From Escherichia coli (GTDB lineage Bacteria; Pseudomonadota; Gammaproteobacteria; Enterobacterales; Enterobacteriaceae), in assembly GCF_041886205.1 (NCBI RefSeq), contig NZ_CP169029.1: a stretch of 64,000 bases of DNA. One strand, given 5' to 3'. This document shows positions 1,925 to 53,026 of this stretch, piece after piece (the stretch's first letter is position 1; the number at the start of each line of letters is the position of its first letter). The notes under the pieces were generated by a model. It saw only the letters and a program-made list of their open reading frames with translations, searched no databases and was not told the origin of the DNA. Made by a program: the position numbers and the translations under genes.

Positions 1925-4149
1925 TATCGTTCTGCCGTGAAAAGTGTTTGAATATCATCGCGTAACAGCTGGGCGTCGGTGTAAATCCAGCCGTGAGTCA
2001 TCACAGTCTGCTGCAATTGCTGCTGCATCAGCCTGACCACCGATTCATTTTGTTGACGCAGAGCCAGACTTTCGCGTAAACGCGTCTGTAATTCCGTCAA
2101 ACATGAAGCGAACTCAGCGAAAAAAGTATTCATGCCTGCCGTAACAGATTCATCGACCTGCTCTGCCAGAACTTTAGCCATTTGTTGGCAATAAAGATCG
2201 ACTTCTGCGCTTAATGCTCGTTGCAACACACTGTAATCAACCGTTTCTGTCGGGGATTTCTCATTTCCCCGTCCCCAGTCAGGCTGATTCAACCAGCGCG
2301 AAAAAGTCTCACGCACAACGCCTAATCGCGTGCTCTGCTCGTCCGTTGCTTCCTGGCGCGAAATGACTTCACTGAACAGCTGGCGAGTGTTGAAGTGGGG
2401 AACTACGCCGTGAAAAACAGGAAAATGAAACCCAGGACGAAACCCTGACTCGCTCAATTCCATTTTGACTTGTTGCTCAATGGGGCGAATAACATCGGTT
2501 AACACCCGGCAAAGGGTGGATTCAAGCTCGGCAAAACGCAGCGTAAAGTCGCGACTGATGGTGTTCTGCGCCGTCTGTAACAGTGTCTCACAGCGGGTAC
2601 GAATCTCGCTTAACGGCTCCGAATCATCCTGAAACAAGGCGGCTAACTGCGCATTCAGCGCATCTTGTTGTTGACGCAGAAAGTGGTTGGCGGAGGTCAG
2701 GGCCAGCTCGATTTCATGTTTAATCTCGCCGCTCACCTGCGCCTGATTGAGTTGCAATAGCTGCAAACTTTCTTCGACCTGATGGATATTTTGCCGCAAT
2801 TGTTCACAAGCGACGTTTAACCCGTGCGCACGAAAATCCAGGTATTCCCGCGCCTGCTGCGCGTAATTCAACAGTTTATGCGCAGCAGATCGCAGAGCAT
2901 ACAACGAGGCGTTAGCGTAAGCGGCATGAAGCAACGCCTGAATTGGCTGGGCGAACAGCGAATCTTCCCACAACTGATCGGCAGCATGACGAATATGTTC
3001 GAGGTCCGCCAGATCGGCATGACGCCAGCGCCTGCCGAGCGCGGCATGGGCAAAATCTTCCACCCAGCGTTGTTGCTCTGGCGCGGGTAACTTACCGTTG
3101 TTGGCTAACTCATGGCGCGCCCGATTCGCCAGGTAGCCCCACATCGACGACACCGGAAATATCTGCTGTGGCGTAATACAGCCTTTCATCAGCGTCCCGG
3201 AAATCAGTGCCCGCACCTGGTCGGCGTCGTCACTGTTACGATCCTGTTGATCGAACTTATTGACCAGCACATACAGCGGCACCGATTGCCCCACCGCCAA
3301 AATCGCCTCACGGACCTCTTCATCGGAGATCGATTTCAGTTGCGTATAATCCAGCACCGCCAGTACCGCCGAGGCGCGTGCCAGCTGCTGGTTAAGCATT
3401 TTTTGCAGATGCGGTTGCCCGGCTTCATTTGGCCCGGGGGTATCCAGTAGCGTCAACTGACCGGGATAACTCTCCAGCCCCGCCAGATGGACAAACTCCA
3501 CTTCAATCACGGGAATATGCTCAATGACGGCGTAAGCAGAAAAAGGAAAATCGACGTCCAGCGCCTTCGCCAGTCGCACTAAATCATTCAAACTTTTCAG
3601 ACAATGAAAAATAGGCTGGGCACCCAGATAATATTTTTCGAAAGCGACGCCATTTTCGATCCGCTGCATAAGCGCACGCATATCTTTATCTATTTCCAGC
3701 ACATCGGTCAGATGCTTAATATCGCAATCACGCAGGCGCTGTTGTAATTGTTGAATTAAACGGTCGATTGGCGCGACATGTGAAAAATGCAGTACCGGTT
3801 CTTTTTGCCCGGGCGTATGGCGAATAAGCGTCGGCAGCGCAGTCATTGGGCGATTACGATTAGGCAGAACCTCCGTACCAACAATGGCATTAATGGTGGT
3901 TGATTTCCCTGCTTTCATGGTACCGACAATTGCAAGCACCATTTCCAGTCGGGAAATTTTACGCAACTCATTATTCAGCATCGCGTGACGTTCGGCGATA
4001 TTAGGCTGACTCCAGGGTAAAGCCAGTTGTGGCGCGTCGTCTCCGGGTACAGAGAGAGACATTTTTTCCAGTAACTGCAACTGTTGGCGAGAAAGCTGTA
4101 ACAGGCGTTCAGCCTCCTGACTTAACTCATACAGGGTCTGTGTGTACAT
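1921..4149 (-). CDS. crfC: Dynamin-like GTPase CrfC (YjdA), 742 aa
   Basis: 742-aa ORF with a GTPase P-loop (GTMKAGKSTT) and long coiled-coil-like C-terminal region; divergent from phnA. Confidence 0.85.
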   Translation of the reverse strand: MYTQTLYELSQEAERLLQLSRQQLQLLEKMSLSVPGDDAPQLALPWSQPNIAERHAMLNNELRKISRLEMVLAIVGTMKAGKSTTINAIVGTEVLPNRNRPMTALPTLIRHTPGQKEPVLHFSHVAPIDRLIQQLQQRLRDCDIKHLTDVLEIDKDMRALMQRIENGVAFEKYYLGAQPIFHCLKSLNDLVRLAKALDVDFPFSAYAVIEHIPVIEVEFVHLAGLESYPGQLTLLDTPGPNEAGQPHLQKMLNQQLARASAVLAVLDYTQLKSISDEEVREAILAVGQSVPLYVLVNKFDQQDRNSDDADQVRALISGTLMKGCITPQQIFPVSSMWGYLANRARHELANNGKLPAPEQQRWVEDFAHAALGRRWRHADLADLEHIRHAADQLWEDSLFAQPIQALLHAAYANASLYALRSAAHKLLNYAQQAREYLDFRAHGLNVACEQLRQNIHQVEESLQLLQLNQAQVSGEIKHEIELALTSANHFLRQQQDALNAQLAALFQDDSEPLSEIRTRCETLLQTAQNTISRDFTLRFAELESTLCRVLTDVIRPIEQQVKMELSESGFRPGFHFPVFHGVVPHFNTRQLFSEVISRQEATDEQSTRLGVVRETFSRWLNQPDWGRGNEKSPTETVDYSVLQRALSAEVDLYCQQMAKVLAEQVDESVTAGMNTFFAEFASCLTELQTRLRESLALRQQNESVVRLMQQQLQQTVMTHGWIYTDAQLLRDDIQTLFTAERY

Positions 4150-4472
4150 AGAAAATTCTTCCTTAAAGCAAATTTTGTTATTTTATTTAGCCAGATTGTT
4201 TTTGAGTTCTGTTTTCGGCTTTTATAATTACTGCAAGAAATAATTTTATATTTAGTGTGTTGTTTTTTATCAGAATAAATAACGTCTTCTGATACGTTTA
4301 AAACGTCAGAAAGATAAAAATATCATGTGAATTAAAAAAAGAACAAGTAGAGCATTAACATTATCTTAAATAATAAATAGAGGCAAAAAGATTATTTTCT
4401 TTTTGCGTTTCCTTTCAAATGAAAACGATCGTCGTCTAAAATCAGCAGTACCCCCGACAAACTCAGGGATTT

Positions 4473-4482
4473 TGTGTATAAT
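4473..4482 (+). promoter_or_regulatory. Candidate sigma70 extended -10 (TGTGTATAAT) upstream of phnA
   Basis: Near-consensus TGnTATAAT about 70 nt upstream of the phnA ATG, in an AT-rich divergent intergenic region. Confidence 0.35.
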
Positions 4483-4549
4483 TGCGGCCTTTTTCGGCAA
4501 TCTGCCGTTTTTTGGCGCTTTTGCCCTGCTGACTTTTGAGGAAATCCAC

Positions 4550-4885
4550 ATGTCATTACCACACTGCCCAAAATGCAACTCCGAATACACCTACGAAGAT
4601 AACGGCATGTACATCTGCCCGGAATGTGCCTACGAATGGAACGACGCAGAACCTGCACAGGAAAGCGACGAGCTGATCGTTAAAGATGCTAACGGCAATC
4701 TGCTGGCTGACGGCGACAGCGTTACCATCATTAAAGATCTGAAGGTGAAAGGTAGCTCTTCGATGCTGAAAATTGGCACCAAAGTGAAAAACATCCGCCT
4801 GGTTGAAGGCGACCATAACATCGATTGCAAAATCGACGGTTTTGGTCCGATGAAACTGAAATCTGAGTTTGTGAAAAAGAACTGA
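4550..4885 (+). CDS. phnA: Phosphonoacetate hydrolase-family zinc-ribbon protein PhnA (111 aa)
   Basis: [32 protein letters not shown]... with CxxC...CxxC zinc ribbon. The tracked ORF 4403-4885 is an upstream extension; the real start is taken as the internal ATG at 4550. Confidence 0.85.
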
Positions 4886-4899
4886 TTGTATTGTGATCG

Positions 4900-5080
<181 letters not shown>

Positions 5081-5142
5081 CCTCTCATCTGTATAAATTT
5101 CGAACTACACTTAACTGGCTTCTCTTAACTGAGGTCACCATC

Positions 5143-5586
5143 ATGCCGTTAAGTCCCTACCTCTCTTTTGCCGGTAACTGTTCCGACGCGATTGCCTATT
5201 ATCAACGTACGTTGGGCGCGGAACTGCTCTATAAAATCAGCTTCGGCGAAATGCCAAAATCAGCGCAGGACAGCGCCGAGAACTGCCCTTCCGGAATGCA
5301 ATTTCCCGATACCGCCATCGCTCATGCCAACGTGCGCATTGCCGGAAGCGACATCATGATGAGCGATGCCATGCCGTCAGGAAAAGCCAGCTACTCCGGC
5401 TTTACGCTGGTGCTCGATTCGCAACAGGTCGAAGAAGGAAAACGCTGGTTTGACAATCTTGCCGCTAACGGAAAAATCGAAATGGCCTGGCAGGAAACTT
5501 TCTGGGCGCATGGCTTTGGCAAAGTCACCGATAAATTTGGCGTACCGTGGATGATTAATGTCGTTAAACAACAACCAACGCAATAA
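5143..5586 (+). CDS. phnB: PhnB (glyoxalase/bleomycin-resistance fold), 147 aa
   Basis: 147-aa ORF between phnA and phnC; sequence matches remembered PhnB. Confidence 0.85.
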   Translation: MPLSPYLSFAGNCSDAIAYYQRTLGAELLYKISFGEMPKSAQDSAENCPSGMQFPDTAIAHANVRIAGSDIMMSDAMPSGKASYSGFTLVLDSQQVEEGKRWFDNLAANGKIEMAWQETFWAHGFGKVTDKFGVPWMINVVKQQPTQ

Positions 5587-5611
5587 CCCGCCGGGAGGCC
5601 CGCCCTCCCGC

Positions 5612-5660
5612 ACTGTCATCGAATTCCCGTTAACTCTTCATCTGTTAGTCACTTTTAATT
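5612..5660 (+). promoter_or_regulatory. Candidate Pho box / phnC promoter region
   Basis: CTGTCAT-type heptamers (CTGTCATCG ... CTGTTAGTCAC) 60-100 nt upstream of the phnC ATG; the phn operon is a known PhoB regulon member. Exact site boundaries not verified. Confidence 0.4.
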
Positions 5661-5718
5661 AACCAAATCGTCACAATAATCCGCCACGATGGAGCCACTT
5701 TTTTAGGGAGGCTGCATC

Positions 5719-6507
5719 ATGCAAACGATTATCCGTGTCGAGAAGCTCGCCAAAACCTTCAATCAGCATCAGGCGCTGCATGCGGTTGATCTGAACATTC
5801 ATCACGGTGAAATGGTGGCTCTGCTTGGGCCGTCGGGTTCCGGCAAATCCACCCTTTTACGTCACTTAAGCGGTTTGATTACCGGCGATAAATCCGCCGG
5901 CAGCCATATCGAGCTGCTGGGCCGCACAGTCCAGCGCGAAGGCCGTCTGGCGCGCGATATCCGCAAAAGCCGCGCCAACACCGGCTACATCTTCCAACAA
6001 TTCAACCTGGTGAACCGCCTGAGCGTACTGGAGAACGTGCTGATTGGCGCGCTCGGCAGCACGCCGTTCTGGCGCACCTGTTTTAGCTGGTTTACCCGCG
6101 AGCAGAAACAACGCGCGTTACAGGCGCTGACCCGCGTTGGCATGGTGCATTTTGCCCATCAACGCGTTTCCACCCTCTCCGGCGGACAGCAGCAGCGTGT
6201 GGCGATTGCCCGCGCGCTGATGCAGCAGGCGAAGGTGATTCTGGCCGATGAACCCATCGCCTCGCTGGACCCGGAATCCGCCCGCATCGTGATGGACACC
6301 CTGCGCGACATCAATCAGAACGACGGCATCACCGTGGTCGTCACGCTGCATCAGGTGGATTACGCCCTGCGCTACTGCGAACGCATCGTCGCCCTGCGCC
6401 AGGGGCACGTTTTCTACGACGGCAGCAGCCAACAGTTTGATAACGAACGTTTTGACCATCTCTACCGCAGCATTAATCGCATCGAAGAGAACGCGAAAGC
6501 TGCCTGA
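5719..6507 (+). CDS. phnC: Phosphonate ABC transporter ATP-binding protein
   Basis: Walker [13 protein letters not shown] signature LSGGQQQR, Walker B ILADEP. Confidence 0.9.
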
Positions 6508-6531
6508 CATCCCCATCATTGAGGAAAACGA

Positions 6532-7548
6532 ATGAACGCTAAGATAATTGCCTCGCTGGCCTTCACCAGCATGTTCAGCCTCAGCACCCTGTTAAGCCCG
6601 GCACACGCCGAAGAGCAGGAAAAGGCGCTGAATTTCGGCATTATTTCAACGGAATCACAGCAAAACCTGAAACCGCAATGGACGCCATTCTTACAGGATA
6701 TGGAGAAGAAGCTGGGCGTGAAGGTGAACGCCTTCTTTGCCCCAGACTACGCAGGCATTATCCAGGGAATGCGCTTCAATAAAGTGGATATCGCCTGGTA
6801 CGGCAACCTGTCGGCAATGGAAGCGGTGGATCGCGCCAACGGCCAGGTCTTCGCTCAGACCGTCGCGGCGGACGGATCGCCGGGTTACTGGAGCGTGTTG
6901 ATCGTCAACAAAGATAGTCCGATCAACAACCTGAACGATCTGCTGGCGAAGCGGAAAGATCTCACCTTCGGCAATGGCGATCCTAACTCCACCTCTGGCT
7001 TCCTCGTCCCCGGTTACTACGTCTTTGCCAAAAACAATATCTCCGCCAGCGACTTCAAGCGCACCGTCAACGCCGGGCATGAAACCAACGCGCTGGCCGT
7101 CGCCAACAAGCAGGTGGATGTTGCCACCAACAACACCGAAAACCTCGACAAGCTGAAAACCTCCGCGCCAGAGAAGCTGAAAGAACTGAAGGTGATCTGG
7201 AAGTCGCCGCTGATCCCAGGCGATCCGATCGTCTGGCGCAAGAATCTTTCCGAAACCACCAAAGACAAGATCTACGACTTCTTTATGAACTACGGCAAAA
7301 CGCCGGAAGAAAAAGCGGTGCTGGAACGCCTGGGCTGGGCGCCATTCCGCGCTTCCAGCGACCTGCAACTGGTGCCGATTCGCCAGCTCGCGCTGTTTAA
7401 AGAGATGCAGGGCGTGAAAAGCAATAAAGGACTGAATGAGCAGGACAAGCTGGCAAAAACCACCGAGATTCAGGCGCAGCTGGATGACCTGGACCGCCTG
7501 AACAACGCGCTAAGCGCGATGAGTTCGGTGAGTAAAGCGGTGCAGTAA
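6532..7548 (+). CDS. phnD: Phosphonate ABC transporter periplasmic binding protein
   Basis: 338 aa with N-terminal signal peptide (…LLSPAHA/EEQ); directly follows phnC. Confidence 0.9.
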   Translation: MNAKIIASLAFTSMFSLSTLLSPAHAEEQEKALNFGIISTESQQNLKPQWTPFLQDMEKKLGVKVNAFFAPDYAGIIQGMRFNKVDIAWYGNLSAMEAVDRANGQVFAQTVAADGSPGYWSVLIVNKDSPINNLNDLLAKRKDLTFGNGDPNSTSGFLVPGYYVFAKNNISASDFKRTVNAGHETNALAVANKQVDVATNNTENLDKLKTSAPEKLKELKVIWKSPLIPGDPIVWRKNLSETTKDKIYDFFMNYGKTPEEKAVLERLGWAPFRASSDLQLVPIRQLALFKEMQGVKSNKGLNEQDKLAKTTEIQAQLDDLDRLNNALSAMSSVSKAVQ

Positions 7549-7552
7549 ATCG

Positions 7553-7645
7553 TAGGTCGGATAAGACGCCCCGGCGTCGCATCCGACAATGTGCAGGCGT
7601 TGATGCCGGATGCGGTGCAAGCACCTTATCCGGCCTACAGACCGG
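7553..7645. repeat. REP/BIME element
   Basis: GTAGGTCGGATAAGACGC...GCATCCGACA and GCCGGATGCGG...CTTATCCGGCCTAC palindromes between phnD and phnE. Confidence 0.85.
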
Positions 7646-7653
7646 AGCCAAAC

Positions 7654-8433
7654 ATGCAAACCATCACCATCGCCCCACCCAAGCGCAGCTGGTTCTCGCT
7701 TCTGAGCTGGGCCGTTGTTCTCGCCGTGCTGGTCGTCTCGTGGCAGGGCGCGGAAATGGCCCCGCTCACGCTGATTAAAGACGGCGGCAACATGGCAACC
7801 TTCGCTGCCGACTTCTTCCCGCCCGATTTCAGCCAGTGGCAGGATTACCTCACCGAAATGGCCGTCACGCTGCAAATCGCCGTCTGGGGCACCGCGCTGG
7901 CGGTGGTTCTCTCCATCCCCTTTGGCCTGATGAGCGCCGAAAACCTGGTGCCGTGGTGGGTTTACCAGCCCGTTCGCCGCCTGATGGACGCCTGCCGCGC
8001 CATTAACGAAATGGTCTTCGCCATGCTGTTCGTGGTCGCCGTCGGTCTCGGACCGTTCGCTGGCGTGCTGGCGCTATTTATCCACACCACCGGCGTGCTC
8101 TCCAAGCTGCTTTCCGAAGCGGTAGAAGCAATTGAACCTGGCCCGGTGGAAGGCATTCGCGCCACCGGTGCCAACAAGCTCGAAGAGATCCTCTACGGCG
8201 TGCTGCCACAGGTGATGCCACTGCTGATCTCCTACTCCCTCTATCGCTTCGAATCCAACGTCCGCTCGGCGACCGTCGTCGGCATGGTCGGCGCAGGCGG
8301 GATCGGCGTCACCCTGTGGGAAGCGATTCGCGGTTTCCAGTTCCAACAAACCTGCGCCCTGATGGTGCTTATCATCGTCACGGTCAGCCTGCTGGATTTC
8401 CTCTCTCAACGGTTGCGTAAGCACTTTATCTGA
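7654..8433 (+). CDS. phnE: Phosphonate ABC transporter permease (intact frame, 259 aa)
   Basis: Start taken at [10 protein letters not shown], downstream of the REP. Multi-pass hydrophobic protein with a single uninterrupted reading frame. Confidence 0.85.
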
Positions 8434-8453
8434 TAAGCGAGGCATTGATATCT

Positions 8454-9179
8454 ATGCACTTGTCTACACATCCGACCAGCTACCCAACACGCTATCAAGA
8501 GATAGCCGCAAAACTTGAGCAGGAGCTTCGTCAACACTACCGCTGCGGCGACTATCTTCCCGCCGAGCAGCAACTGGCAGCGCGCTTTGAGGTGAATCGC
8601 CACACCCTGCGCCGCGCCATCGACCAACTGGTGGAAAAAGGCTGGGTACAGCGCCGTCAGGGCGTCGGCGTGCTGGTGCTGATGCGCCCGTTCGATTACC
8701 CGCTCAACGCCCAGGCGCGTTTTAGCCAGAATCTGCTGGATCAGGGCAGCCATCCCACCAGCGAAAAACTGCTTTCGGTATTGCGCCCCGCGTCCGGCCA
8801 CGTCGCTGACGCACTGGGGATTACCGAGGGGGAGAACGTCATCCACCTGCGCACCCTGCGTCGTGTCAACGGCGTCGCGCTCTGTTTAATCGACCACTAC
8901 TTCGCGGACCTCACCCTCTGGCCGACGCTGCAACGCTTCGACAGCGGCTCGCTGCACGATTTTCTGCGCGAGCAAACCGGAATTGCGCTGCGCCGCAGCC
9001 AGACGCGGATCAGCGCCCGCCGCGCCCAGGCCAAAGAGTGCCAGCGTCTTGAAATCCCGAATATGTCGCCGCTGCTGTGCGTGCGCACCCTTAACCACCG
9101 TGACGGTGAAAGCAGCCCGGCGGAGTACTCCGTCAGCCTGACGCGCGCCGACATGATTGAATTCACTATGGAGCACTGA
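8454..9179 (+). CDS. phnF: GntR-family transcriptional regulator PhnF
   Basis: N-terminal HTH region (YLPAEQQLAARFEVNRHTLRRAIDQL) plus UTRA-like C-terminus; start could be 8445 or 8454. Confidence 0.85.
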   Translation: MHLSTHPTSYPTRYQEIAAKLEQELRQHYRCGDYLPAEQQLAARFEVNRHTLRRAIDQLVEKGWVQRRQGVGVLVLMRPFDYPLNAQARFSQNLLDQGSHPTSEKLLSVLRPASGHVADALGITEGENVIHLRTLRRVNGVALCLIDHYFADLTLWPTLQRFDSGSLHDFLREQTGIALRRSQTRISARRAQAKECQRLEIPNMSPLLCVRTLNHRDGESSPAEYSVSLTRADMIEFTMEH

Positions 9180-9632
9180 ATGCACGCAGATACCGCGACC
9201 CGCCAGCACTGGATGTCCGTGCTGGCGCACAGCCAACCGGCTGAACTGGCAGCACGCCTGAACGCGCTAAACATCACCGCCGACTATGAGGTGATCCGCG
9301 CCGCTGAAACTGGCCTGGTACAGATTCAGGCGCGGATGGGCGGCACCGGCGAACGTTTTTTTGCCGGCGACGCCACGCTGACCCGCGCCGCCGTGCGCCT
9401 GACTGACGGCACGCTCGGCTACAGCTGGGTGCAGGGGCGTGATAAACAGCACGCCGAACGCTGCGCGCTGATTGACGCGCTGATGCAGCAATCTCGCCAC
9501 TTTCAAAACTTATCAGAAACCCTTATTGCCCCGCTGGACGCTGACCGTATGGCACGCATTGCCGCACGCCAGGCCGAAGTGAACGCCAGCCGGGTCGACT
9601 TCTTTACGATGGTTCGCGGAGACAACGCATGA
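9180..9632 (+). CDS. phnG: C-P lyase core complex subunit PhnG
   Basis: 150 aa; TGA/ATG overlap with phnF; operon position. Confidence 0.9.
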
Positions 9633-10213
9633 CCCTGGAAACCGCTTTTATGCTTCCCGTGCAGGATGCCCAGCACAGTTTTCGTCGCCTGTTAAAGGCC
9701 ATGAGCGAGCCGGGCGTGATTGTCGCCCTGCATCAGCTCAAACGCGGCTGGCAACCGCTGAATATCGCCACCACCAGCGTGCTGCTGACGCTGGCCGATA
9801 ACGACACGCCGGTGTGGCTTTCTACCCCATTAAATAACGATATCGTCAACCAGAGCCTGCGTTTTCATACCAACGCGCCGCTGGTCAGCCAGCCGGAACA
9901 GGCGACCTTCGCGGTGACGGATGAGGCGATTTCCAGCGAACAGCTCAACGCCCTTTCCACCGGCACCGCCGTTGCGCCGGAAGCGGGTGCGACGCTGATT
10001 TTACAGGTCGCCAGCCTGAGCGGCGGACGCATGTTGCGCCTTACTGGTGCGGGTATTGCCGAAGAACGAATGATCGCTCCGCAGCTGCCGGAGTGCATTC
10101 TGCACGAACTCACCGAGCGCCCGCATCCGTTCCCGCTCGGCATCGACCTGATCCTGACCTGTGGCGAGCGCCTGCTGGCTATTCCGCGAACCACTCATGT
10201 GGAGGTGTGCTGA
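9629..10213 (+). CDS. phnH: C-P lyase core complex subunit PhnH
   Basis: 194 aa; 4-nt overlap with phnG. Confidence 0.9.
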
Positions 10214-11277
10214 TGTACGTTGCCGTGAAAGGGGGCGAGAAGGCGATCGACGCCGCCCACGCCCTGCAAGAGAGCCGACGCCGAGGCGATACCGATTTGC
10301 CCGAACTGAGCGTCGCCCAGATTGAACAGCAGCTTAACCTCGCGGTAGATCGCGTGATGACCGAAGGCGGCATTGCCGACCGCGAACTGGCGGCGCTGGC
10401 GCTGAAACAGGCCAGCGGCGATAACGTTGAAGCGATTTTCCTGCTGCGCGCCTACCGCACCACGTTGGCGAAGCTGGCGGTAAGCGAGCCGCTCGACACC
10501 ACCGGGATGCGTCTCGAACGCCGTATCTCCGCCGTTTATAAAGACATTCCCGGCGGCCAGCTGCTTGGCCCAACCTACGACTACACCCATCGCCTGCTCG
10601 ATTTTACCCTGCTGGCAAACGGCGAAGCGCCGACGCTGACCACCGCCGACAGCGAACAGCAGCCGTCGCCGCACGTTTTCAGCCTGCTGGCGCGTCAGGG
10701 GCTGGCGAAGTTTGAAGAGGATAGCGGCGCACAGCCGGATGACATCACCCGCACGCCGCCGGTTTACCCCTGCTCACGCTCCTCCCGTTTGCAGCAGTTG
10801 ATGCGCGGCGACGAAGGCTATTTGCTGGCGCTGGCCTACTCCACCCAACGCGGTTACGGGCGCAATCACCCGTTCGCAGGCGAGATCCGCAGCGGCTATA
10901 TCGACGTGTCGATTGTGCCGGAAGAGCTGGGATTTGCGGTGAACGTCGGCGAACTGCTGATGACTGAGTGTGAAATGGTTAACGGTTTTATCGACCCGCC
11001 GGGTGAGCCGCCGCACTTCACGCGCGGCTACGGGCTGGTGTTCGGCATGAGCGAGCGCAAAGCGATGGCGATGGCGCTGGTCGACCGCGCTCTGCAAGCC
11101 CCGGAGTACGGCGAGCACGCGACAGGCCCGGCGCAGGATGAAGAGTTCGTGCTGGCACATGCCGACAACGTCGAAGCCGCAGGCTTTGTCTCACACCTCA
11201 AACTCCCCCACTACGTCGATTTCCAGGCCGAACTGGAGCTACTCAAACGTCTGCAACAGGAGCAGAACCATGGCTAA
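10213..11277 (+). CDS. phnI: C-P lyase core complex subunit PhnI (354 aa)
   Basis: Start taken at [16 protein letters not shown], overlapping the phnH stop; the tracked ORF 10093-11277 is a 5' over-extension. Confidence 0.85.
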   Translation: MYVAVKGGEKAIDAAHALQESRRRGDTDLPELSVAQIEQQLNLAVDRVMTEGGIADRELAALALKQASGDNVEAIFLLRAYRTTLAKLAVSEPLDTTGMRLERRISAVYKDIPGGQLLGPTYDYTHRLLDFTLLANGEAPTLTTADSEQQPSPHVFSLLARQGLAKFEEDSGAQPDDITRTPPVYPCSRSSRLQQLMRGDEGYLLALAYSTQRGYGRNHPFAGEIRSGYIDVSIVPEELGFAVNVGELLMTECEMVNGFIDPPGEPPHFTRGYGLVFGMSERKAMAMALVDRALQAPEYGEHATGPAQDEEFVLAHADNVEAAGFVSHLKLPHYVDFQAELELLKRLQQEQNHG

Positions 11278-12115
11278 TCTGAGCGGCTACAACTTTGCCT
11301 ACCTCGACGAGCAGACCAAACGCATGATCCGCCGCGCCATCTTAAAAGCGGTGGCGATCCCCGGTTATCAGGTGCCGTTTGGCGGGCGCGAGATGCCGAT
11401 GCCGTACGGCTGGGGAACCGGCGGCATTCAGCTTACCGCCAGCGTGATTGGCGAAAGCGACGTGCTGAAGGTGATTGACCAGGGCGCGGATGACACCACC
11501 AACGCCGTGTCGATTCGCAACTTCTTCAAGCGCGTGACCGGGGTAAACACCACGGAACGTACGGACGATGCGACGGTTATCCAGACGCGTCACCGCATCC
11601 CCGAAACGCCGCTGACCGAAGATCAGATAATTATCTTCCAGGTGCCAATCCCCGAGCCGCTGCGCTTTATCGAGCCGCGCGAAACGGAAACCCGCACCAT
11701 GCACGCGCTGGAAGAGTACGGCGTGATGCAGGTGAAACTGTATGAAGATATCGCCCGCTTCGGTCATATCGCCACCACCTACGCCTATCCGGTGAAGGTA
11801 AATGGGCGCTACGTGATGGACCCGTCGCCGATCCCGAAATTCGATAACCCAAAAATGGACATGATGCCCGCCCTGCAACTGTTCGGCGCGGGGCGCGAGA
11901 AGCGCATCTATGCGGTGCCGCCGTTTACCCGCGTGGAAAGTCTCGATTTCGACGATCACCCGTTCACCGTTCAGCAGTGGGATGAGCCATGCGCCATCTG
12001 CGGATCGACCCACAGCTATCTTGATGAAGTGGTGCTGGATGACGCCGGAAACCGCATGTTTGTCTGCTCCGATACCGATTATTGCCGCCAACAGAGCGAG
12101 GCAAAAAACCAATGA
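11270..12115 (+). CDS. phnJ: C-P lyase PhnJ (radical SAM-dependent C-P bond cleavage subunit)
   Basis: Start at MANLSGYNFAYLDEQTKRMIRRAILKAVAIPGYQVPF; C-terminal CxxCxxxxxC cysteine cluster (CAICGSTHSYLDEV). Confidence 0.85.
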   Translation: MANLSGYNFAYLDEQTKRMIRRAILKAVAIPGYQVPFGGREMPMPYGWGTGGIQLTASVIGESDVLKVIDQGADDTTNAVSIRNFFKRVTGVNTTERTDDATVIQTRHRIPETPLTEDQIIIFQVPIPEPLRFIEPRETETRTMHALEEYGVMQVKLYEDIARFGHIATTYAYPVKVNGRYVMDPSPIPKFDNPKMDMMPALQLFGAGREKRIYAVPPFTRVESLDFDDHPFTVQQWDEPCAICGSTHSYLDEVVLDDAGNRMFVCSDTDYCRQQSEAKNQ

Positions 12116-12870
12116 ATCAACCGTTACTTTCGGTCAATAACCTGACCCACCTTTACGCGCCGGGCAAAGGCTTTAGCGATGTCTCTTTTGATTTATGGCC
12201 GGGGGAAGTGCTGGGCATTGTCGGGGAATCCGGCTCCGGGAAGACCACGCTGCTGAAGTCGATCTCCGCGCGCCTGACGCCGCAGCAGGGGGAAATTCAC
12301 TACGAGAACCGTTCGCTGTATGCAATGAGCGAGGCCGACCGCCGTCGCCTGCTGCGTACCGAATGGGGCGTGGTGCATCAGCATCCACTCGACGGCCTGC
12401 GCCGCCAGGTGTCGGCAGGCGGCAATATCGGCGAGCGGCTGATGGCGACCGGGGCACGTCATTACGGCGATATTCGTGCCACCGCGCAGAAGTGGCTGGA
12501 AGAGGTGGAGATTCCCGCCAACCGGATCGACGACCTGCCGACCACCTTTTCCGGCGGTATGCAGCAGCGTTTGCAGATTGCCCGCAACCTGGTGACGCAT
12601 CCGAAGCTGGTGTTTATGGATGAACCGACCGGCGGGCTGGATGTGTCGGTGCAGGCCCGCCTGCTCGACCTGCTGCGCGGCCTGGTGGTGGAGCTGAACC
12701 TCGCGGTGGTGATTGTCACCCATGATTTAGGCGTCGCCCGCCTGCTGGCGGACCGTTTGCTGGTGATGAAGCAGGGGCAAGTGGTGGAGAGTGGGTTAAC
12801 CGACCGCGTGCTCGACGACCCGCATCATCCGTATACACAGCTGCTGGTGTCATCGGTTTTGCAGAATTGA
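12112..12870 (+). CDS. phnK: ABC-type ATPase PhnK (C-P lyase accessory)
   Basis: Walker [10 protein letters not shown], signature FSGGMQQR, Walker B VFMDEPT. Confidence 0.9.
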
Positions 12871-12871
12871 G

Positions 12872-12962
<91 letters not shown>

Positions 12963-12980
12963 CGAACCACGAGGCGAAAA

Positions 12981-13661
12981 ATGATTAACGTACAAAACGT
13001 CAGTAAAACCTTCATCCTGCACCAGCAAAACGGCGTGCGCCTGCCCGTCCTCAATCGCGCCTCGCTCACCGTCAACGCGGGCGAATGCGTGGTGCTCCAC
13101 GGCCATTCCGGCAGCGGCAAATCAACTCTGCTACGCTCGCTGTACGCCAACTATCTACCCGACGAAGGTCAAATCCAGATCAAACACGGTGACGAGTGGG
13201 TAGACCTGGTCACCGCGCCAGCGCGCAAAGTGGTGGAAATCCGCAAAACCACCGTCGGCTGGGTGAGCCAGTTTCTGCGCGTCATCCCGCGTATCTCAGC
13301 ACTGGAAGTGGTGATGCAGCCGCTGCTCGATACCGGCGTTCCGCGTGAAGCCTGCGCCGCTAAAGCCGCGCGTCTTCTCACCCGCCTGAACGTGCCGGAA
13401 CGCCTGTGGCACCTGGCACCATCGACATTTTCCGGTGGCGAACAGCAGCGCGTCAACATCGCCCGCGGCTTTATCGTCGACTACCCCATTCTGCTGCTTG
13501 ACGAACCTACCGCCTCGCTGGACGCCAAAAACAGCGCCGCGGTGGTGGAACTGATTCGCGAAGCCAAAACCCGTGGCGCAGCCATCGTAGGCATCTTCCA
13601 TGACGAAGCTGTACGTAATGACGTCGCCGACCGCCTGCACCCAATGGGAGCCTCTTCATGA
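12981..13661 (+). CDS. phnL: ABC-type ATPase PhnL (226 aa)
   Basis: Start taken at [11 protein letters not shown], downstream of the REP; Walker [10 protein letters not shown], signature FSGGEQQR, Walker B LLLDEPT. Confidence 0.85.
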
Positions 13662-14794
13662 TTATCAATAACGTTAAGCTGGTGCTGGAAAACGAGGTGG
13701 TAAGCGGTTCGCTGGAGGTGCAGAACGGCGAAATCCGCGCCTTTGCCGAAAGCCAGAGCCGCCTGCCGGAGGCGATGGACGGCGAAGGCGGCTGGCTGCT
13801 GCCGGGGCTGATTGAGCTGCATACCGATAATCTGGATAAATTCTTCACCCCGCGCCCGAAAGTTGACTGGCCTGCCCACTCGGCGATGAGCAGCCACGAC
13901 GCGCTGATGGTGGCGAGCGGCATCACCACCGTACTGGATGCCGTGGCAATTGGCGACGTGCGCGACGGCGGCGATCGGCTGGAGAATCTGGAGAAGATGA
14001 TCAACGCCATCGAAGAGACGCAGAAACGCGGCGTCAACCGCGCCGAGCACCGTCTGCATCTGCGCTGCGAACTGCCGCATCACACCACGCTGCCGCTGTT
14101 TGAAAAACTGGTGCAGCGCGAGCCGGTGACGCTGGTGTCGCTGATGGACCACTCGCCGGGCCAGCGCCAGTTCGCCAACCGCGAGAAGTATCGCGAATAT
14201 TATCAGGGCAAATACTCCCTCACTGATGCGCAGATGCAGCAGTACGAAGAAGAGCAACTGGCGCTCGCCGCACGCTGGTCGCAGCCGAATCGCGAATCCA
14301 TCGCCGCCCTGTGCCGCGCGCGAAAAATTGCGCTTGCCAGCCACGATGACGCCACCCACGCCCACGTTGCTGAATCTCACCAGCTTGGCAGCGTGATCGC
14401 CGAATTTCCCACCACGTTCGAAGCGGCGGAAGCCTCGCGCAAGCATGGCATGAACGTGCTGATGGGCGCGCCGAATATTGTGCGCGGCGGCTCGCACTCC
14501 GGCAACGTGGCGGCCAGTGAACTGGCGCAGCTTGGCCTGCTGGATATCCTCTCTTCCGACTACTACCCCGCCAGCCTGCTCGATGCGGCATTTCGCGTCG
14601 CCGATGACGAGAGCAACCGCTTTACGCTGCCGCAGGCGGTGAAGCTGGTGACTAAAAATCCAGCGCAGGCGCTTAATCTCCAGGATCGCGGGGTGATTGG
14701 CGAGGGCAAACGCGCCGACCTGGTGCTGGCGCATCGCAAGGACAATCATATTCATATCGACCACGTCTGGCGTCAGGGTAAAAGGGTGTTCTGA
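13658..14794 (+). CDS. phnM: PhnM, amidohydrolase-family C-P lyase pathway enzyme
   Basis: 378 aa; metal-dependent hydrolase-like HTD motif ([10 protein letters not shown]); 4-nt overlap with phnL. Confidence 0.9.
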
Positions 14795-15351
14795 TGATGG
14801 GAAAACTGATTTGGTTAATGGGGCCGTCCGGCTCCGGGAAAGACAGCCTGCTGGCGGAACTCCGCCTGCGGGAACAAACTCAGTTACTGGTGGCGCATCG
14901 CTACATCACGCGCGATGCCAGCGCCGGAAGTGAAAACCATATCGCCCTGAGCGAGCAGGAGTTTTTTACCCGCGCGGGGCAAAATCTGTTGGCCTTAAGC
15001 TGGCACGCTAACGGTCTGTATTATGGCGTCGGCGTCGAGATTGATCTCTGGCTGCACGCCGGATTCGACGTGCTGGTCAACGGCTCACGCGCCCATCTGC
15101 CGCAGGCGCGGGCGCGCTATCAATCGGCGCTGCTGCCCGTCTGTTTACAGGTTTCGCCGGAGATCCTCCGCCAGCGCCTGGAAAACCGTGGCCGTGAAAA
15201 CGCCAGTGAAATTAACGCCCGCCTGGCGCGCGCCGCCCGCTATACTCCACAGGATTGCCATACGCTCAACAATGACGGCAGCCTGCGCCAGTCGGTCGAC
15301 ACGCTGCTGACGCTGATCCATCAGAAGGAGAAACACCATGCCTGCTTGTGA
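14794..15351 (+). CDS. phnN: Ribose 1,5-bisphosphate phosphokinase PhnN
   Basis: 185 aa; P-loop GPSGSGKDS; operon position. Confidence 0.9.
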
Positions 15352-15772
15352 GCTTCGCCCGGCCACGCAGTACGACACCGACGCGGTTTACGCGCTGATT
15401 TGTGAGCTAAAACAGGCGGAGTTTGACCACCACGCGTTTCGCGTGGGTTTTAACGCCAATCTGCGCGACCCAAACATGCGCTACCATCTGGCGCTGCTTG
15501 ATGGCGAAGTTGTCGGCATGATCGGCCTGCATTTGCAGTTTCATCTGCATCATGTCAACTGGATCGGCGAAATTCAGGAGTTGGTGGTAATGCCGCAGGC
15601 GCGCGGTCTGAACGTCGGCAGTAAGTTACTGGCGTGGGCAGAAGAAGAAGCCCGCCAGGCCGGGGCCGAAATGACCGAACTTTCGACCAACGTGAAGCGC
15701 CACGACGCGCACCGTTTCTATCTGCGCGAAGGCTACGAGCAGAGCCACTTCCGCTTCACCAAGGCGCTGTAA
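15338..15772 (+). CDS. phnO: Aminoalkylphosphonate N-acetyltransferase PhnO (GNAT)
   Basis: 144 aa GNAT-like protein overlapping the phnN 3' end. Confidence 0.9.
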
Positions 15773-15773
15773 C

Positions 15774-16532
15774 ATGAGCCTGACCCTCACGCTCACCGGC
15801 ACCGGCGGCGCACAGGGCGTTCCGGCATGGGGCTGCGAGTGTGCGGCCTGCGCCAGAGCGCGGCGCTCGCCGCAGTATCGCCGCCAACCGTGCAGCGGCG
15901 TAGTGAAGTTTAACGACGCAATCACCCTGATCGACGCCGGGCTGCACGATCTCGCCGATCGTTGGTCGCCCGGATCGTTCCAGCAGTTTTTGCTGACGCA
16001 TTATCATATGGATCACGTCCAGGGGCTGTTTCCGCTGCGCTGGGGCGTTGGCGATCCGATCCCGGTTTACGGCCCGCCGGATGAACAGGGCTGCGACGAT
16101 CTGTTTAAACATCCGGGCCTGCTTGATTTCAGCCACACGGTGGAACCGTTTGTGGTGTTTGATTTGCAGGGGTTACAGGTCACGCCCCTGCCGCTCAACC
16201 ACTCAAAACTGACCTTCGGTTATCTGCTGGAAACGGCACACAGCCGGGTGGCGTGGCTGTCTGACACCGCAGGCTTGCCGGAAAAAACGCTGAAATTTTT
16301 ACGCAATAATCAGCCGCAGGTAATGGTGATGGATTGCAGTCACCCGCCGCGCGCGGATGCACCGCGTAATCACTGTGATTTAAATACCGTGCTTGCGCTG
16401 AATCAGGTTATCCGCTCGCCACGGGTGATTCTGACCCATATCAGCCACCAGTTTGATGCGTGGCTGATGGAAAACGCACTACCGTCAGGGTTTGAGGTGG
16501 GGTTTGATGGGATGGAGATTGGGGTGGCGTGA
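15774..16532 (+). CDS. phnP: Phosphodiesterase PhnP (metallo-beta-lactamase fold)
   Basis: 252 aa with HxHxDH motif ([10 protein letters not shown]). Confidence 0.9.
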
Positions 16533-16552
16533 TGAGAGGGAATGTGCGCGCT

Positions 16553-16660
16553 GGCCCCCTCACCCTAACCCTCTCCCCAGAGGGGCGAGGGGACCGATTG
16601 TGCTCGATATTGAATATTGCGCTCGTTTTCTCCCTCTCCCCATTGGGGTGAGGGGCGATG
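16553..16660. repeat. Two C-rich/G-rich imperfect palindromes in the convergent phnP-yjdP gap (possible bidirectional terminator or small repeat-family element)
   Basis: CCCTCACCCTAACCCTCTCCCCAGAGGGGCGAGGGGAC at ~16557-16594 and CTCCCTCTCCCCATTGGGGTGAGGGGCG at ~16630-16657; each can fold as a GC-rich hairpin. Confidence 0.5.
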
Positions 16661-16678
16661 CCTGCTCCATACCCAACC

Positions 16679-17008
16679 TCATCGCCCATACTCATCTTCC
16701 ATTCTCCGCTCTTCATCCTCCAGTTGCCGACGCTCCTGATCAAGCTGGCGCTGGCGATCGTCCAGCTGCCTGCGGCGATCTTCAAACTGGCGGCGGCGGT
16801 CGTCATATTGTCTGCGCCGATCGTCGCTCACTTCACGCTGCCAGCCGTCGTCGCGCGAATCTTCATAGTCTCGCCCACGGTCAGGGTTATAAGCGTCATT
16901 AATCGCCTGCTGAATATTGCCAATGGTGTCGTCGATAATATCGGCCTGGGCCGGAACGGTGGACAGCGTGAGCAGGGTGAATAAAAGAAATAGCGGAAAG
17001 CGTTTCAT
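16679..17008 (-). CDS. yjdP: Small secreted protein YjdP (109 aa)
   Basis: Signal peptide MKRFPLFLLFTLLTLSTVPAQA followed by a repetitive D/R/Q/E-rich region (RRQYDDRRRQFEDRRRQLDDRQRQLDQERRQLEDEERR). Confidence 0.8.
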   Translation of the reverse strand: MKRFPLFLLFTLLTLSTVPAQADIIDDTIGNIQQAINDAYNPDRGRDYEDSRDDGWQREVSDDRRRQYDDRRRQFEDRRRQLDDRQRQLDQERRQLEDEERRMEDEYGR

Positions 17009-17076
17009 TAGCCAACCTCAAAAAGAAACTCTATCCACATTAATCATTACTCATCCATGCAAGTAGTGGATGAATC

Positions 17077-17394
17077 TCAATTTCTCCGCTGCTCTATTGC
17101 CGTAATCGCCTCCACGCGTTGTTGATGACGACCGCCTTCGTACTGTGCGCCCAGCCACGCATCCACAATCATTTTTGCCAGTTCGAGGCCAACCACTCGT
17201 GAACCAAAAGCCAGTGCAACTTCACTGGCGTAATGCGGATAATCAGTGCGCTCTGACGACCTGGTTTCTTTATCAATCCCCTCACTCATTGACCATGAAT
17301 AAAAGGCTGGCACAGCAACACAGAATCCTGCGGTGCCAGCGACATGACCGCCCATTGCTCCGGTACGTTTTTTAATAAAAAACACCGGTTGCAT
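17077..17394 (-). pseudogene. rpiB: Remnant of ribose-5-phosphate isomerase B (rpiB): C-terminal half retained, internal in-frame deletion, non-RpiB N-terminus
   Basis: The 105-aa ORF contains SSERTDYPHYASEVALA fused directly to FGSRVVGLELAKMIVDAWLGAQYEGGRHQQRVEAITAIEQRRN. Both match remembered RpiB but with ~58 intervening residues missing, and the first ~36 residues do not resemble RpiB. Confidence 0.6.
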
Positions 17395-17634
17395 TGATTA
17401 ATTGTGCTCAGTATTTGCCGAAGTACAATATATATAATAAATATATAAAACACCTCATATTATTTACAGAGATAATAAATTCGCGTACTTTTCCCTCTTC
17501 AGCACAAATGCCTAATAAAATGGCGCGTTCAGCTCACACTTCCACTTATTAAAGTCGCAATTTCCCAATTATGATAACGCCAGCTTTAAATGACGTATTT
17601 TGCATGGATTACATATTTACGACATAAATGATAA

Positions 17635-19632
17635 ATGGAGATTTATATGAATAACTCTCGGTTATTCCGTTTGAGCAGGATTGTTATTGCGTTAACTGCC
17701 GCCAGCGGCATGATGGTAAATACCGCTAACGCGAAAGAGGAAGCGAAAGCCGCCACTCAATATACCCAACAGGTTAATCAGAATTACGCCAAATCATTAC
17801 CGTTTAGCGATCGTCAGGATTTTGACGATGCCCAGCGTGGATTTATCGCCCCGCTGCTGGATGAAGGTATTCTGCGTGATGCGAACGGTAAAGTTTACTA
17901 CCGCGCGGACGATTACAAATTTGATATTAATGCCGCAGCGCCGGAAACCGTAAACCCCAGCCTGTGGCGTCAGTCGCAAATCAACGGTATTTCTGGCCTG
18001 TTCAAAGTCACCGATAAAATGTATCAGGTGCGCGGCCAGGATATCTCTAACATTACGTTCGTTGAGGGCGAGAAAGGCATTATTGTTATTGACCCACTGG
18101 TGACGCCACCTGCCGCAAAAGCCGCACTTGACCTTTACTTCCAGCATCGTCCGCATAAACCGATTGTTGCCGTTATCTACACTCACAGCCACACTGACCA
18201 CTATGGTGGCGTGAAAGGTATTATCTCTGAAGCCGATGTTAAATCCGGCAAAGTTCAGGTGATTGCCCCTGCAGGCTTTATGGACGAAGCCATCAGCGAA
18301 AACGTGCTGGCGGGTAACATCATGAGCCGCCGTGCGCTCTACTCTTACGGTCTGTTACTGCCGCACAACGCGCAAGGCAACGTGGGTAATGGCCTTGGCG
18401 TGACGCTGGCAACGGGCGACCCGAGCATTATTGCACCGACTAAAACTATCGTCAGAACTGGCGAGAAGATGATTATTGACGGCCTGGAGTTTGACTTCCT
18501 GATGACCCCAGGTAGCGAAGCGCCAGCCGAAATGCACTTCTATATTCCGGCCCTGAAAGCCCTGTGTACCGCCGAGAACGCCACGCATACCCTACACAAC
18601 TTCTACACTCTGCGCGGCGCGAAAACCCGCGATACCAGCAAGTGGACCGAGTACCTGAACGAAACGCTGGATATGTGGGGTAACGACGCGGAAGTCCTGT
18701 TTATGCCGCACACCTGGCCGGTCTGGGGCAATAAGCATATCAATGATTATATTGGTAAATATCGCGATACTATCAAGTACATTCACGACCAGACCCTGCA
18801 CCTGGCGAACCAGGGCTACACCATGAATGAAATCAGCGACATGATTAAGCTGCCGCCTGCACTTGCCAATAACTGGGCCAGCCGTGGCTATTACGGTTCT
18901 GTCAGCCACAACGCCCGCGCGGTGTATAACTTCTATCTTGGCTATTACGACGGTAACCCGGCTAACCTGCATCCGTATGGTCAGGTGGAGATGGGTAAAC
19001 GTTACGTGCAGGCGCTGGGCGGTTCTGCCCGTGTCATCAACCTAGCGCAAGAAGCGAACAAGCAAGGTGATTACCGCTGGTCGGCAGAACTGCTGAAACA
19101 GGTGATTGCCGCCAACCCGGGTGACCAGGTCGCGAAGAATCTGCAAGCGAATAACTTTGAACAGCTGGGCTATCAGGCCGAATCCGCCACCTGGCGCGGT
19201 TTCTACCTGACCGGCGCGAAAGAGCTGCGCGAAGGGGTGCATAAGTTCAGCCACGGCACCACCGGTTCCCCGGACACCATTCGCGGGATGTCGGTCGAAA
19301 TGCTGTTCGACTTTATGTCCGTTCGCCTCGATAGCGCGAAAGCCGCGGGTAAAAATATCAGCCTGAACTTCAATATGAGCAATGGCGATAACCTCAACCT
19401 GACGCTGAACGATAGCGTGCTTAACTACCGTAAAACACTGCAATCCCAAGCTGACGCCTCTTTCTACATCAGCCGTGAAGATCTGCACGCCGTGCTAACC
19501 GGGCAAGCCAAAATGGCGGATCTGGTAAAAGCGAAGAAAGCCAAAATTATTGGCAATGGCGCGAAACTGGAAGAAATTATCGCCTGTCTGGATAATTTCG
19601 ATTTGTGGGTGAATATCGTAACCCCAAATTAA
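17635..19632 (+). CDS. yjcS: YjcS, alkyl/aryl-sulfatase-like metallo-beta-lactamase-fold hydrolase with signal peptide
   Basis: 665-aa ORF; HSHTDHYGG metal-binding motif; N-terminal signal peptide. True start may be the internal MNNSRLF at 17647. Confidence 0.85.
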
Positions 19633-19640
19633 TGTCACTC

Positions 19641-19680
19641 GCTTTTGGGGGCGCTGAAGCCCCCAAAAGCATTTATTTTA
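19641..19680 (+). terminator. Rho-independent terminator after yjcS
   Basis: GCTTTTGGGGG-loop-CCCCCAAAAGC hairpin followed by a T-rich tract. Confidence 0.7.
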
Positions 19681-19840
19681 AAAATATATACAGCCAATTA
19701 ATAAATAAAATATATAAGTTATGAATGCGGTGGCTGAATAAAGCTATTTTTATTCATCGAGAAAATAGCCATACTGACGCCTTCAATGGATATTGATATT
19801 CACTACAGATATTGTTCGCAGCAGACAGGATGTATTTAAT

Positions 19841-20116
19841 ATGCCAACAGTTCTCTCTCGCATGGCGATGCAACTCAAAAAAACAGCCTGGATAATTCCC
19901 GTCTTCATGGTTTCGGGATGCTCATTATCTCCGGCAATCCCGGTGATCGGTGCTTATTATCCCAGCTGGTTTTTCTGCGCCATTGCCAGCCTTATTTTGA
20001 TGCTCATCACGAGGCGAGTTATTCAGCGGGCAAATATCAATCTGGCATTTGTCGGAATTATTTATACCGCCCTTTTTGCTCTCTACGCCATGCTGTTCTG
20101 GCTGGCATTTTTCTAA
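19841..20116 (+). CDS. ytcA: Small lipoprotein YtcA (91 aa)
   Basis: Start at MPTVLSRMAMQLKKTAWIIPVFMVSGCSLSP (lipobox VSGC); immediately upstream of mdtN. Confidence 0.75.
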   Translation: MPTVLSRMAMQLKKTAWIIPVFMVSGCSLSPAIPVIGAYYPSWFFCAIASLILMLITRRVIQRANINLAFVGIIYTALFALYAMLFWLAFF

Positions 20117-20134
20117 TCTATTTGAGACGCGCTC

Positions 20135-21166
20135 ATGGAAAGTACGCCGAAAAAAGCTCCTCGCAGTAAATTCCCTGCTCTGTTAGTGGTTGCGTTGGCG
20201 CTGGTTGCCCTTGTTTTCGTTATCTGGCGCGTAGACAGTGCGCCATCAACTAATGACGCTTACGCGTCAGCAGATACCATTGATGTGGTGCCGGAAGTCA
20301 GCGGTCGCATTGTAGAACTGGCGGTCACCGACAACCAGGCGGTGAAACAGGGCGATTTGCTGTTCCGCATCGACCCGCGCCCGTACGAAGCCAACCTGGC
20401 GAAAGCCGAAGCCTCCCTCGCGGCGCTGGATAAGCAAATTATGCTCACCCAGCGTAGCGTTGACGCCCAACAGTTTGGTGCCGACTCGGTTAATGCCACG
20501 GTAGAAAAAGCCCGTGCCGCCGCTAAACAGGCCACAGATACATTACGCCGCACCGAGCCATTACTGAAAGAAGGTTTTGTCTCAGCGGAAGACGTTGACC
20601 GTGCGAGGACCGCGCAGCGCGCTGCAGAAGCCGATCTTAATGCCGTATTGTTACAGGCGCAGTCAGCCGCCAGCGCCGTCAGCGGCGTCGATGCGCTGGT
20701 GGCGCAACGTGCGGCGGTCGAAGCGGATATTGCCCTGACCAAACTTCATCTGGAAATGGCGACCGTACGCGCGCCGTTTGATGGCCGGATCATTTCCCTC
20801 AAAACCTCCGTCGGGCAATTTGCTTCTGCCATGCGCCCTATTTTTACCCTAATCGACACTCGTCACTGGTACGTGATCGCCAACTTCCGCGAAACCGATC
20901 TGAAAAATATTCGCTCAGGTACACCCGCAACGATTCGCCTGATGAGTGACAGCGGCAAAACCTTCGAGGGTAAAGTGGATTCGATTGGCTACGGCGTGCT
21001 ACCGGATGATGGCGGCCTGGTGCTGGGCGGCCTGCCGAAAGTTTCTCGTTCTATTAACTGGGTCCGCGTTGCCCAGCGTTTTCCGGTCAAAATCATGGTC
21101 AATAAACCTGACCCGGAAATGTTCCGCATCGGCGCTTCGGCAGTCGCTAATCTTGAGCCGCAATAA
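20135..21166 (+). CDS. mdtN: Multidrug efflux membrane-fusion protein MdtN (EmrA-like)
   Basis: 343 aa; N-terminal membrane anchor plus coiled-coil/HlyD-like region; precedes mdtO. Confidence 0.85.
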   Translation: MESTPKKAPRSKFPALLVVALALVALVFVIWRVDSAPSTNDAYASADTIDVVPEVSGRIVELAVTDNQAVKQGDLLFRIDPRPYEANLAKAEASLAALDKQIMLTQRSVDAQQFGADSVNATVEKARAAAKQATDTLRRTEPLLKEGFVSAEDVDRARTAQRAAEADLNAVLLQAQSAASAVSGVDALVAQRAAVEADIALTKLHLEMATVRAPFDGRIISLKTSVGQFASAMRPIFTLIDTRHWYVIANFRETDLKNIRSGTPATIRLMSDSGKTFEGKVDSIGYGVLPDDGGLVLGGLPKVSRSINWVRVAQRFPVKIMVNKPDPEMFRIGASAVANLEPQ

Positions 21167-27810: not shown

Positions 27811-27880
27811 TAGGCCTGATAAGACGCGTTAAGCGTCGCATCAGGCATTCACACATTGCCGGGTGGATATCCCCGGCAAT
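27811..27880. repeat. REP element plus palindrome at the convergent yjcO/gltP 3' ends
   Basis: AGGCCTGATAAGACGCG...GCATCAGGC REP unit followed by the CCGGGTGGATATCCCCGG palindrome. Confidence 0.7.
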
Positions 27881-52632: not shown

Positions 52633-52666
52633 TCGTTAAGGCCGCTTTCTGAGCGGCCTTTTCCTT

Positions 52667-53023: not shown

Positions 53024-53026
53024 TTT

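Follow-up and report, generated by a model that had tools for sequence, protein, structure and literature searches.

Intact two-unit phnE at a known 8-bp slippage site in a natural Escherichia coli isolate, and the repeat numbers found across the species

Introduction

The phosphonate transporter gene phnE of Escherichia coli raises the question of whether an 8-bp tandem repeat lying inside its coding sequence is a switch, by which the permease is turned on and off, or a stretch of ordinary codons at which a unit is occasionally gained and lost. The cryptic K-12 allele and its 8-bp repeat were reportedly described by Makino in 1991, and the title of a 2004 paper by Iqbal is said to report that the phnE switch is reversible. 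Deletion of one GCTGGCGT at ORF position 407–414 restores transport in K-12 (PMC6469041), and this deletion was ascribed to high-frequency slippage between direct repeats (PMC4759930). The phnE revertants of K-12 can grow on phosphonates (PMC3463581). Phase variation of the gene has been given as "2 or 3 copies" (bioRxiv 10.1101/2019.12.23.887760), and a functional phnE has been reported in most isolates (PMC6469041).

Here, the site is analysed in a 64,000-nucleotide stretch of E. coli DNA (the window), in K-12 and in the complete genomes of the species. A preliminary description of the window had presented its phnE as a functional, phase-ON gene with two units of the form GCTGGCGY that remains switchable.

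Results

On direct reading, positions 8059–8066 of the window are GCTGGCGT and positions 8067–8074 are GCTGGCGC, i.e., a tandem pair of 8-bp units on the plus strand that differ in the last base. The pair lies within the phnE open reading frame, which starts on the same strand with the ATG at 7654, ends with the TGA at 8433 (780 nt, 259 codons plus the stop) and contains no internal stop codon. The two units occupy nucleotides 406–421 of this frame, i.e., codons 136–141, which encode Ala-Gly-Val-Leu-Ala-Leu (AGVLAL). With two units the first stop is reached at codon 260, and the gene is in frame only with 2, 5, 8 or 11 units. Both statements that the preliminary description had made about the window itself, namely that two GCTGGCGY units stand in frame at 8059–8074 and that phnE is uninterrupted over 259 codons, are borne out by this reading.

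The product is a permease of the phosphonate ABC transporter type. It matches the NCBIfam equivalog TIGR01097 with 311.5 bits (curated cut-off 216.7), residues 16–258 corresponding to positions 8–251 of the 252-position model, and its residues 88–258 match Pfam PF00528 (BPD_transp_1) with 91.8 bits. Next to phnE lie the genes for the ATPase (phnC) and the binding protein (phnD) of the transporter, and the C-P lyase operon (phnF–phnP) is intact. A pair of REP-like palindromes is found in the phnD–phnE intergenic region (7553–7645). The K-12 record places the start of phnE 51 nt farther upstream, within a REP-like element of this gap; the ATG at 7654, which is the choice of PGAP, looks more plausible than that start. 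Two minus-strand reading frames over the repeat (7962–8177 and 8074–8445) were set aside as mechanical ORFs opposite a G+C-rich gene.

At the same site, K-12 MG1655 holds three units, GCTGGCGT GCTGGCGT GCTGGCGC. The alignment of K-12 phnE (b4583, annotated as a pseudogene) with the window gene contains a single 8-bp gap, which falls exactly at the repeat, and over phnC–phnP no indel other than this unit separates the window from K-12. The K-12 translation is normal to residue 140, continues through 49 aberrant codons and ends at a stop at codon 190, so that the frameshift costs PhnE a 19-residue segment plus its C-terminal half. Removal of one unit from K-12 phnE in silico gives a protein that equals the window PhnE at every residue, and all 13 of the nucleotide differences between the two genes are synonymous. 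The earlier claim that K-12 is cryptic through an extra 8-bp unit is thus upheld by the unit count (three in K-12, two in the window), by the pseudogene annotation and by the loss of frame at the repeat itself; K-12 does not share the two-unit sequence, and its frameshift does not lie elsewhere.

A per-gene comparison with K-12 showed that all 14 phn genes of the window, which lie on the plus strand, match K-12 in length, begin and end with proper codons and are free of internal stops. Upstream of phnE, phnC (5719–6507) encodes an intact ATP-binding subunit of 262 aa (NF007438, 608 bits), and phnD (6532–7548) encodes an intact periplasmic binding protein of 338 aa (TIGR03431, 376 bits), which is identical to the K-12 protein. 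Downstream, phnF (8454–9179), which encodes an intact GntR-type regulator of 241 aa, shows 100% nucleotide identity to K-12. The genes of the C-P lyase pathway, phnG, phnH, phnI, phnJ, phnK, phnL, phnM, phnN, phnO and phnP (9180–16532), align to K-12 without gaps at 99.85–100% nucleotide identity, and their products have the K-12 lengths of 150, 194, 354, 281, 252, 226, 378, 185, 144 and 252 aa, respectively. Amino-acid differences from K-12 number four in PhnC and one in PhnM. In the phnC promoter region, a Pho-box-like sequence, CTGTTAGTCACTTTTAATTAAC, was read at 5642–5663 on the plus strand; in the phnC promoter of K-12 this sequence presumably serves as the Pho box, and it is a putative Pho box here. 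The region upstream of phnC is the same in the window and in K-12, with zero differences over 5565–5844.

A Phn+ genotype is well supported by these comparisons, because the 14 phn genes are full length, the promoter region is as in K-12 and the predicted PhnE equals the protein of a K-12 revertant. Against the Phn+ prediction, a silent defect elsewhere may escape a reading of the sequence, e.g., among the four amino-acid changes in PhnC and the one in PhnM. Going by its genotype, the strain resembles about four fifths of sequenced E. coli in being equipped for the uptake and use of phosphonates (as well as orthophosphate, by way of PhnCDE). For annotation, the phnE of the window should not be labelled a pseudogene, which is useful to those who work with K-12 as the reference.

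The origin of the two-unit allele can be followed in the distribution of SNPs. Relative to K-12, the window diverges by about 2% over 5322–8139 (about 60 SNPs in 2.8 kb), whereas only three SNPs are found over the 9 kb of 8140–17214; outside those tracts, it is about 1% divergent. The change in divergence inside phnE is sharp, and a recombination junction is therefore placed there, the SNP map giving an interval of 8140–8216, which lies within phnE on the downstream side of the repeat, 65 to about 140 bp away from it. Strain PD007 retains the divergent haplotype farther downstream than the window does. A derivation of the ON state of the window by slippage from a K-12-like three-unit ancestor was considered in view of the near-identity of phnF–phnP, and is unsupported, as the repeat sits in the tract of about 2% divergence. 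The repeat thus belongs to a non-K-12 tract, and the two-unit state is therefore taken to have arrived through descent or recombination, as part of a different haplotype, and not by recent slippage. Over positions 4000–24000, the window is 100% identical to the natural isolates wlxctx60 and 6EVA; its strain is thus distinct from both K-12 and E. coli B.

A mosaic like that at phnE is also seen farther along the window, where further near-K-12 tracts (46001–50000 and 52001–59681, with 0–2 differences per 2 kb) alternate with stretches of 1–3% divergence, e.g., 50001–52000 with 55 differences. Three structural differences were also observed. The yjdM–yjdN gap (4897–5079) contains a 100-bp REP-containing (BIME-like) tandem in 2 copies, against 5.8 copies in K-12 (11806–12385 of the K-12 locus), and the length of this intergenic region steps by about 100 bp across other strains (257, 457, 557 and 657–659 bp). 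At about 17215–17422, the D-allose operon and rpiB (K-12 4306822–4313662, about 6.8 kb) are missing and about 200 bp of unrelated sequence stand in their place. In the gltP–yjcO intergenic region (about 27811–27849), K-12 has about 525 bp extra.

The number of units across the species was surveyed in 5,426 complete E. coli genomes, which were queried with short sequences made of the flanks and 1, 2, 3 or 4 units. The query length was chosen such that one 8-bp gap drops a match to a lower identity band, and the record spans were checked in the listed rows. The counts refer to 5,394 records, of which about 13 hold part of the region only, and they are good to about that number. Two units were found in about 4,368 records, as given by the 80–90% band of the four-unit query, with which the other queries are consistent. 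Three units were found in about 1,000 records, 999 being counted both at 99% identity or more to the K-12 query and in the one-gap band. Four units are present in 12 records, which are 100% full-length matches and agree with the 12 records in the two-gap band. Direct reading gave seven units in one record (strain OkiPb01713, array at 1261–1316 of the retrieved locus) and ten units in another (strain 2013C-4974, array at 1261–1340 of the retrieved locus). A one-unit phnE allele had no full-length match among the 5,394 E. coli records. The alleles of 3, 4, 7 and 10 units are perfect additions of GCTGGCGT at the same site, all annotated as frameshifted by PGAP, and about 19% of complete E. coli genomes carry an out-of-frame phnE.

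Two units are the usual, wild-type condition in the species. The cryptic K-12 allele is itself common in nature, because 16 of 22 three-unit rows, taken as evenly spaced samples of the ranking, come from people, animals, food or culture collections and are not laboratory K-12 derivatives. Such a common three-unit allele fits with a functional phnE in most isolates. The four-unit alleles lie on the K-12-like haplotype, in isolates of human, chicken, pig-farm and wastewater origin, e.g., VR50 (1261–1292) and SW071611. The 7- and 10-unit alleles share a third flanking haplotype.

The haplotypes on which these alleles lie bear on how often the site switches in nature. On the K-12-like 144-bp haplotype, 999 three-unit records were found, vs. 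one on the haplotype of the window; the latter is strain 35, a bovine isolate, and the two-unit records of the same haplotype number 384. A further 1,525 records combine the K-12-like local haplotype with two units; one of them, a sequenced MG1655 derivative, is taken to be a revertant. Three units are thus carried by about 39% of the K-12-like haplotype vs. about 0.04% of all others (about 1 in 2,800 genomes). Gain from two units looks rare in nature, because three-unit alleles are nearly confined to one haplotype, and the pattern is what a single old gain passed on by descent would produce, rather than frequent switching. An array that already has three units seems more labile, and four-unit derivatives are found in about eight non-clonal genomes. 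Strain SEC470 is a mosaic with a window-like phnC–phnD and a K-12-like three-unit phnE, showing that recombination can therefore move the OFF allele between backgrounds. In another three-unit strain, 2013C-4991, a deletion has fused phnI to phnK with the loss of phnJ (7223–8509 of the retrieved locus), which looks like secondary decay of the operon, with an OFF state heading for permanent loss.

Statistically, a repeat of only two units does not stand out from chance. Tandems of 8 + 8 bp with at most one mismatch occur at 21 loci in the window, vs. 18.2 ± 4.2 in first-order Markov simulations, and the exact period-8 self-match at the phnE repeat covers 7 nt only. The significance of the repeat comes only from comparison with other genomes. 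The uniqueness of the 16-mer in the window was discarded as a measure of significance; it uses the wrong null, and the null of any 8 + 8 tandem gives chance level. The likeness of the unit to Chi (GCTGGTGG), which extends to 6 of 8 positions, was likewise given no weight, as GCTGGCG occurs 82 times in the window.

The peptide encoded at the site was traced with the pattern G-P-F-A-G-V-L-A-L-x-x-H-T, in any codons and in one genome per species, which returned at least 120 loci. The matches come from at least 120 species of several phyla (Burkholderiales, Rhodocyclales, cyanobacteria, Chloroflexi and others), and the AGVLAL-containing peptide is therefore regarded as a conserved PhnE motif. Among the 120 genes listed, the two "units" agree with each other at 2 to 7 of 8 positions; self-identity reaches 7/8 in five genes and is at most 6/8 in the other 115, and the E. 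coli 16-mer occurs in one. The commonest string among these listed genes is GCCGGCGT GCTGGCGC, which a single synonymous substitution would turn into the E. coli 16-mer. Two related enterobacterial genera were recovered, and there the self-agreement is 5/8 (Leclercia) and 6/8 (Pseudocitrobacter), the repeat being degraded by synonymous changes. Judged from these codons, the repeat is best read as a by-product of the G+C-rich AGVLAL codons, made more exact in E. coli by the use of GCT for alanine. No sign that the tract is maintained beyond its coding needs was seen in the 120 listed species genes, in the two related genera or in the chance test on the window.

Discussion

The phnE of the window is very probably the intact wild-type gene of a natural E. 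coli isolate, with a complete phnCDEFGHIJKLMNOP operon around it and an 8-bp slippage site inside it. In codons 136–141 (GCT GGC GTG CTG GCG CTA), GCTGGCG forms a direct repeat at an 8-nt offset with one base between the copies, and during replication the nascent strand could mispair between the two copies. Such mispairing would add or remove one 8-bp unit, shift the frame and truncate the permease before the ATPase-coupling loop. The +1-unit (three-unit) allele, predicted to be transport-defective, is carried by K-12 and by roughly one in five sequenced E. coli, and the loss of a unit from this allele yields exactly the protein encoded in the window. We infer slippage as the mechanism from the literature, and the window strain may still be switching at a useful rate. 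The switch at the phnE repeat was already known, reportedly from Makino (1991) and Iqbal (2004), and the window holds its majority state.

The interpretation given in the preliminary description is supported. That the locus remains switchable holds in principle, one genome of the window haplotype having gained a third unit, and is weak in practice, such a gain being seen in about 1 of 2,800 genomes outside the K-12-like haplotype. "Phase-ON" is acceptable as shorthand and somewhat generous for a repeat that is at chance level, reads as a codon by-product and rarely switches in nature. The gene is better described as a wild-type phnE that is intact and contains a known slippage hotspot, where OFF alleles arise rarely.

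Slightly less than an even chance is given to the reading that no evolved switch exists, i.e., that the two units are the ancestral coding of a conserved peptide, that the three-unit allele is a revertible, lineage-specific pseudogenising duplication, and that "phase-ON" over-reads the site. The conservation of the PhnE motif in representatives of at least 120 species from several phyla agrees with this reading, as do the self-similarity of the units, which ranges from 2 to 7 of 8 and is degraded in Leclercia and Pseudocitrobacter, and the chance-level repeat in the window. The three-unit share of about 39% on the K-12-like haplotype and about 0.04% elsewhere points to descent from one event, and one three-unit strain went on to lose phnJ. 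However, perfect-unit alleles of 4, 7 and 10 copies occur on two haplotypes, an independent gain occurred on the haplotype of the window, and the literature is said to announce reversibility in a title (Iqbal, 2004). Unit loss in K-12 is moreover frequent and has been selected repeatedly in the laboratory (PMC6469041; PMC4759930). Jointly, this evidence argues for a true slippage hotspot once three or more units are present. The reading without an evolved switch and that of an intact wild-type gene at a slippage site differ in emphasis, the mechanism being the same.

The stronger proposal, that the octanucleotide tract of phnE is a naturally operating, species-wide contingency locus rather than a K-12 laboratory curiosity, is considered unlikely; OFF alleles would then perhaps be selected in some niches, and the window would represent the ON side of a balanced polymorphism. 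If it were true, OFF alleles may gain because PhnCDE imports toxic phosphonates, e.g., fosfomycin. In a preprint, fosfomycin is reported to select for the inactivation of phn genes (bioRxiv 10.1101/2019.12.23.887760), and such selection is a possible reason for the persistence of OFF alleles. Far less probable still, and close to negligible, is that unit number differs between genomes only through errors of sequencing or assembly. Tandem repeats can mis-assemble, and the 7- and 10-unit alleles are each found in one assembly only. However, three units are present in about 1,000 independent complete assemblies and two units in about 4,368, the K-12 state was confirmed by both Sanger and genome sequencing (PMC6469041; PMC4759930), arrays of 16–24 bp are far below the length of a sequencing read, and the four-unit state recurs in 12 assemblies, among them clonal sets that different projects produced.

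For the window, described as an intact wild-type phnE at a slippage site, there is little consequence beyond genotype and annotation. For the species, the natural K-12-type allele, the longer alleles and their clade structure bear on the choice between an adaptive switch and a revertible pseudogene. A literature search for published surveys of how many units phnE carries in natural isolates found none, although the absence of such a survey is not thereby shown. What is added to the known switch is a modest extra, i.e., a spectrum of 2, 3, 4, 7 and 10 units (with about 19% of genomes out of frame) and its clade structure, which were not found described in the literature searched.

Comparison with known systems

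The window PhnE belongs with the PhnE/PtxC ABC permeases (TIGR01097; PF00528), being full length, above the cut-off and encoded immediately downstream of phnC and phnD, and no difference from this family was found. The closest known system is the phnE switch of K-12, in which phn(EcoK0) is cryptic and phn(EcoK+) and phn(EcoB) are functional. The window shares with it the gene, the site and the unit GCTGGCGT, and represents the two-unit functional state, with nothing different at the switch itself. What sets the window apart from the K-12 system is its origin in a natural isolate lineage and the non-K-12 haplotype on which the 5′ two-thirds of phnE and phnCD lie.

The wider comparison is with the simple-sequence-repeat (SSR) contingency loci of Neisseria, Haemophilus and Campylobacter. 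Like these loci, phnE has an intragenic tandem repeat whose unit is not divisible by three, the gain or loss of a unit toggles the frame, and strains are polymorphic (2, 3, 4, 7 and 10 units). However, the contingency loci have long, hypermutable tracts, whereas the usual ON state of phnE is two imperfect units with an exact match of 7 nt, which is far shorter. In further contrast to the contingency loci, the phnE repeat reads as a by-product of codons and has lost its conservation in both of the related genera recovered, and the OFF alleles of phnE are structured by clade instead of being scattered.
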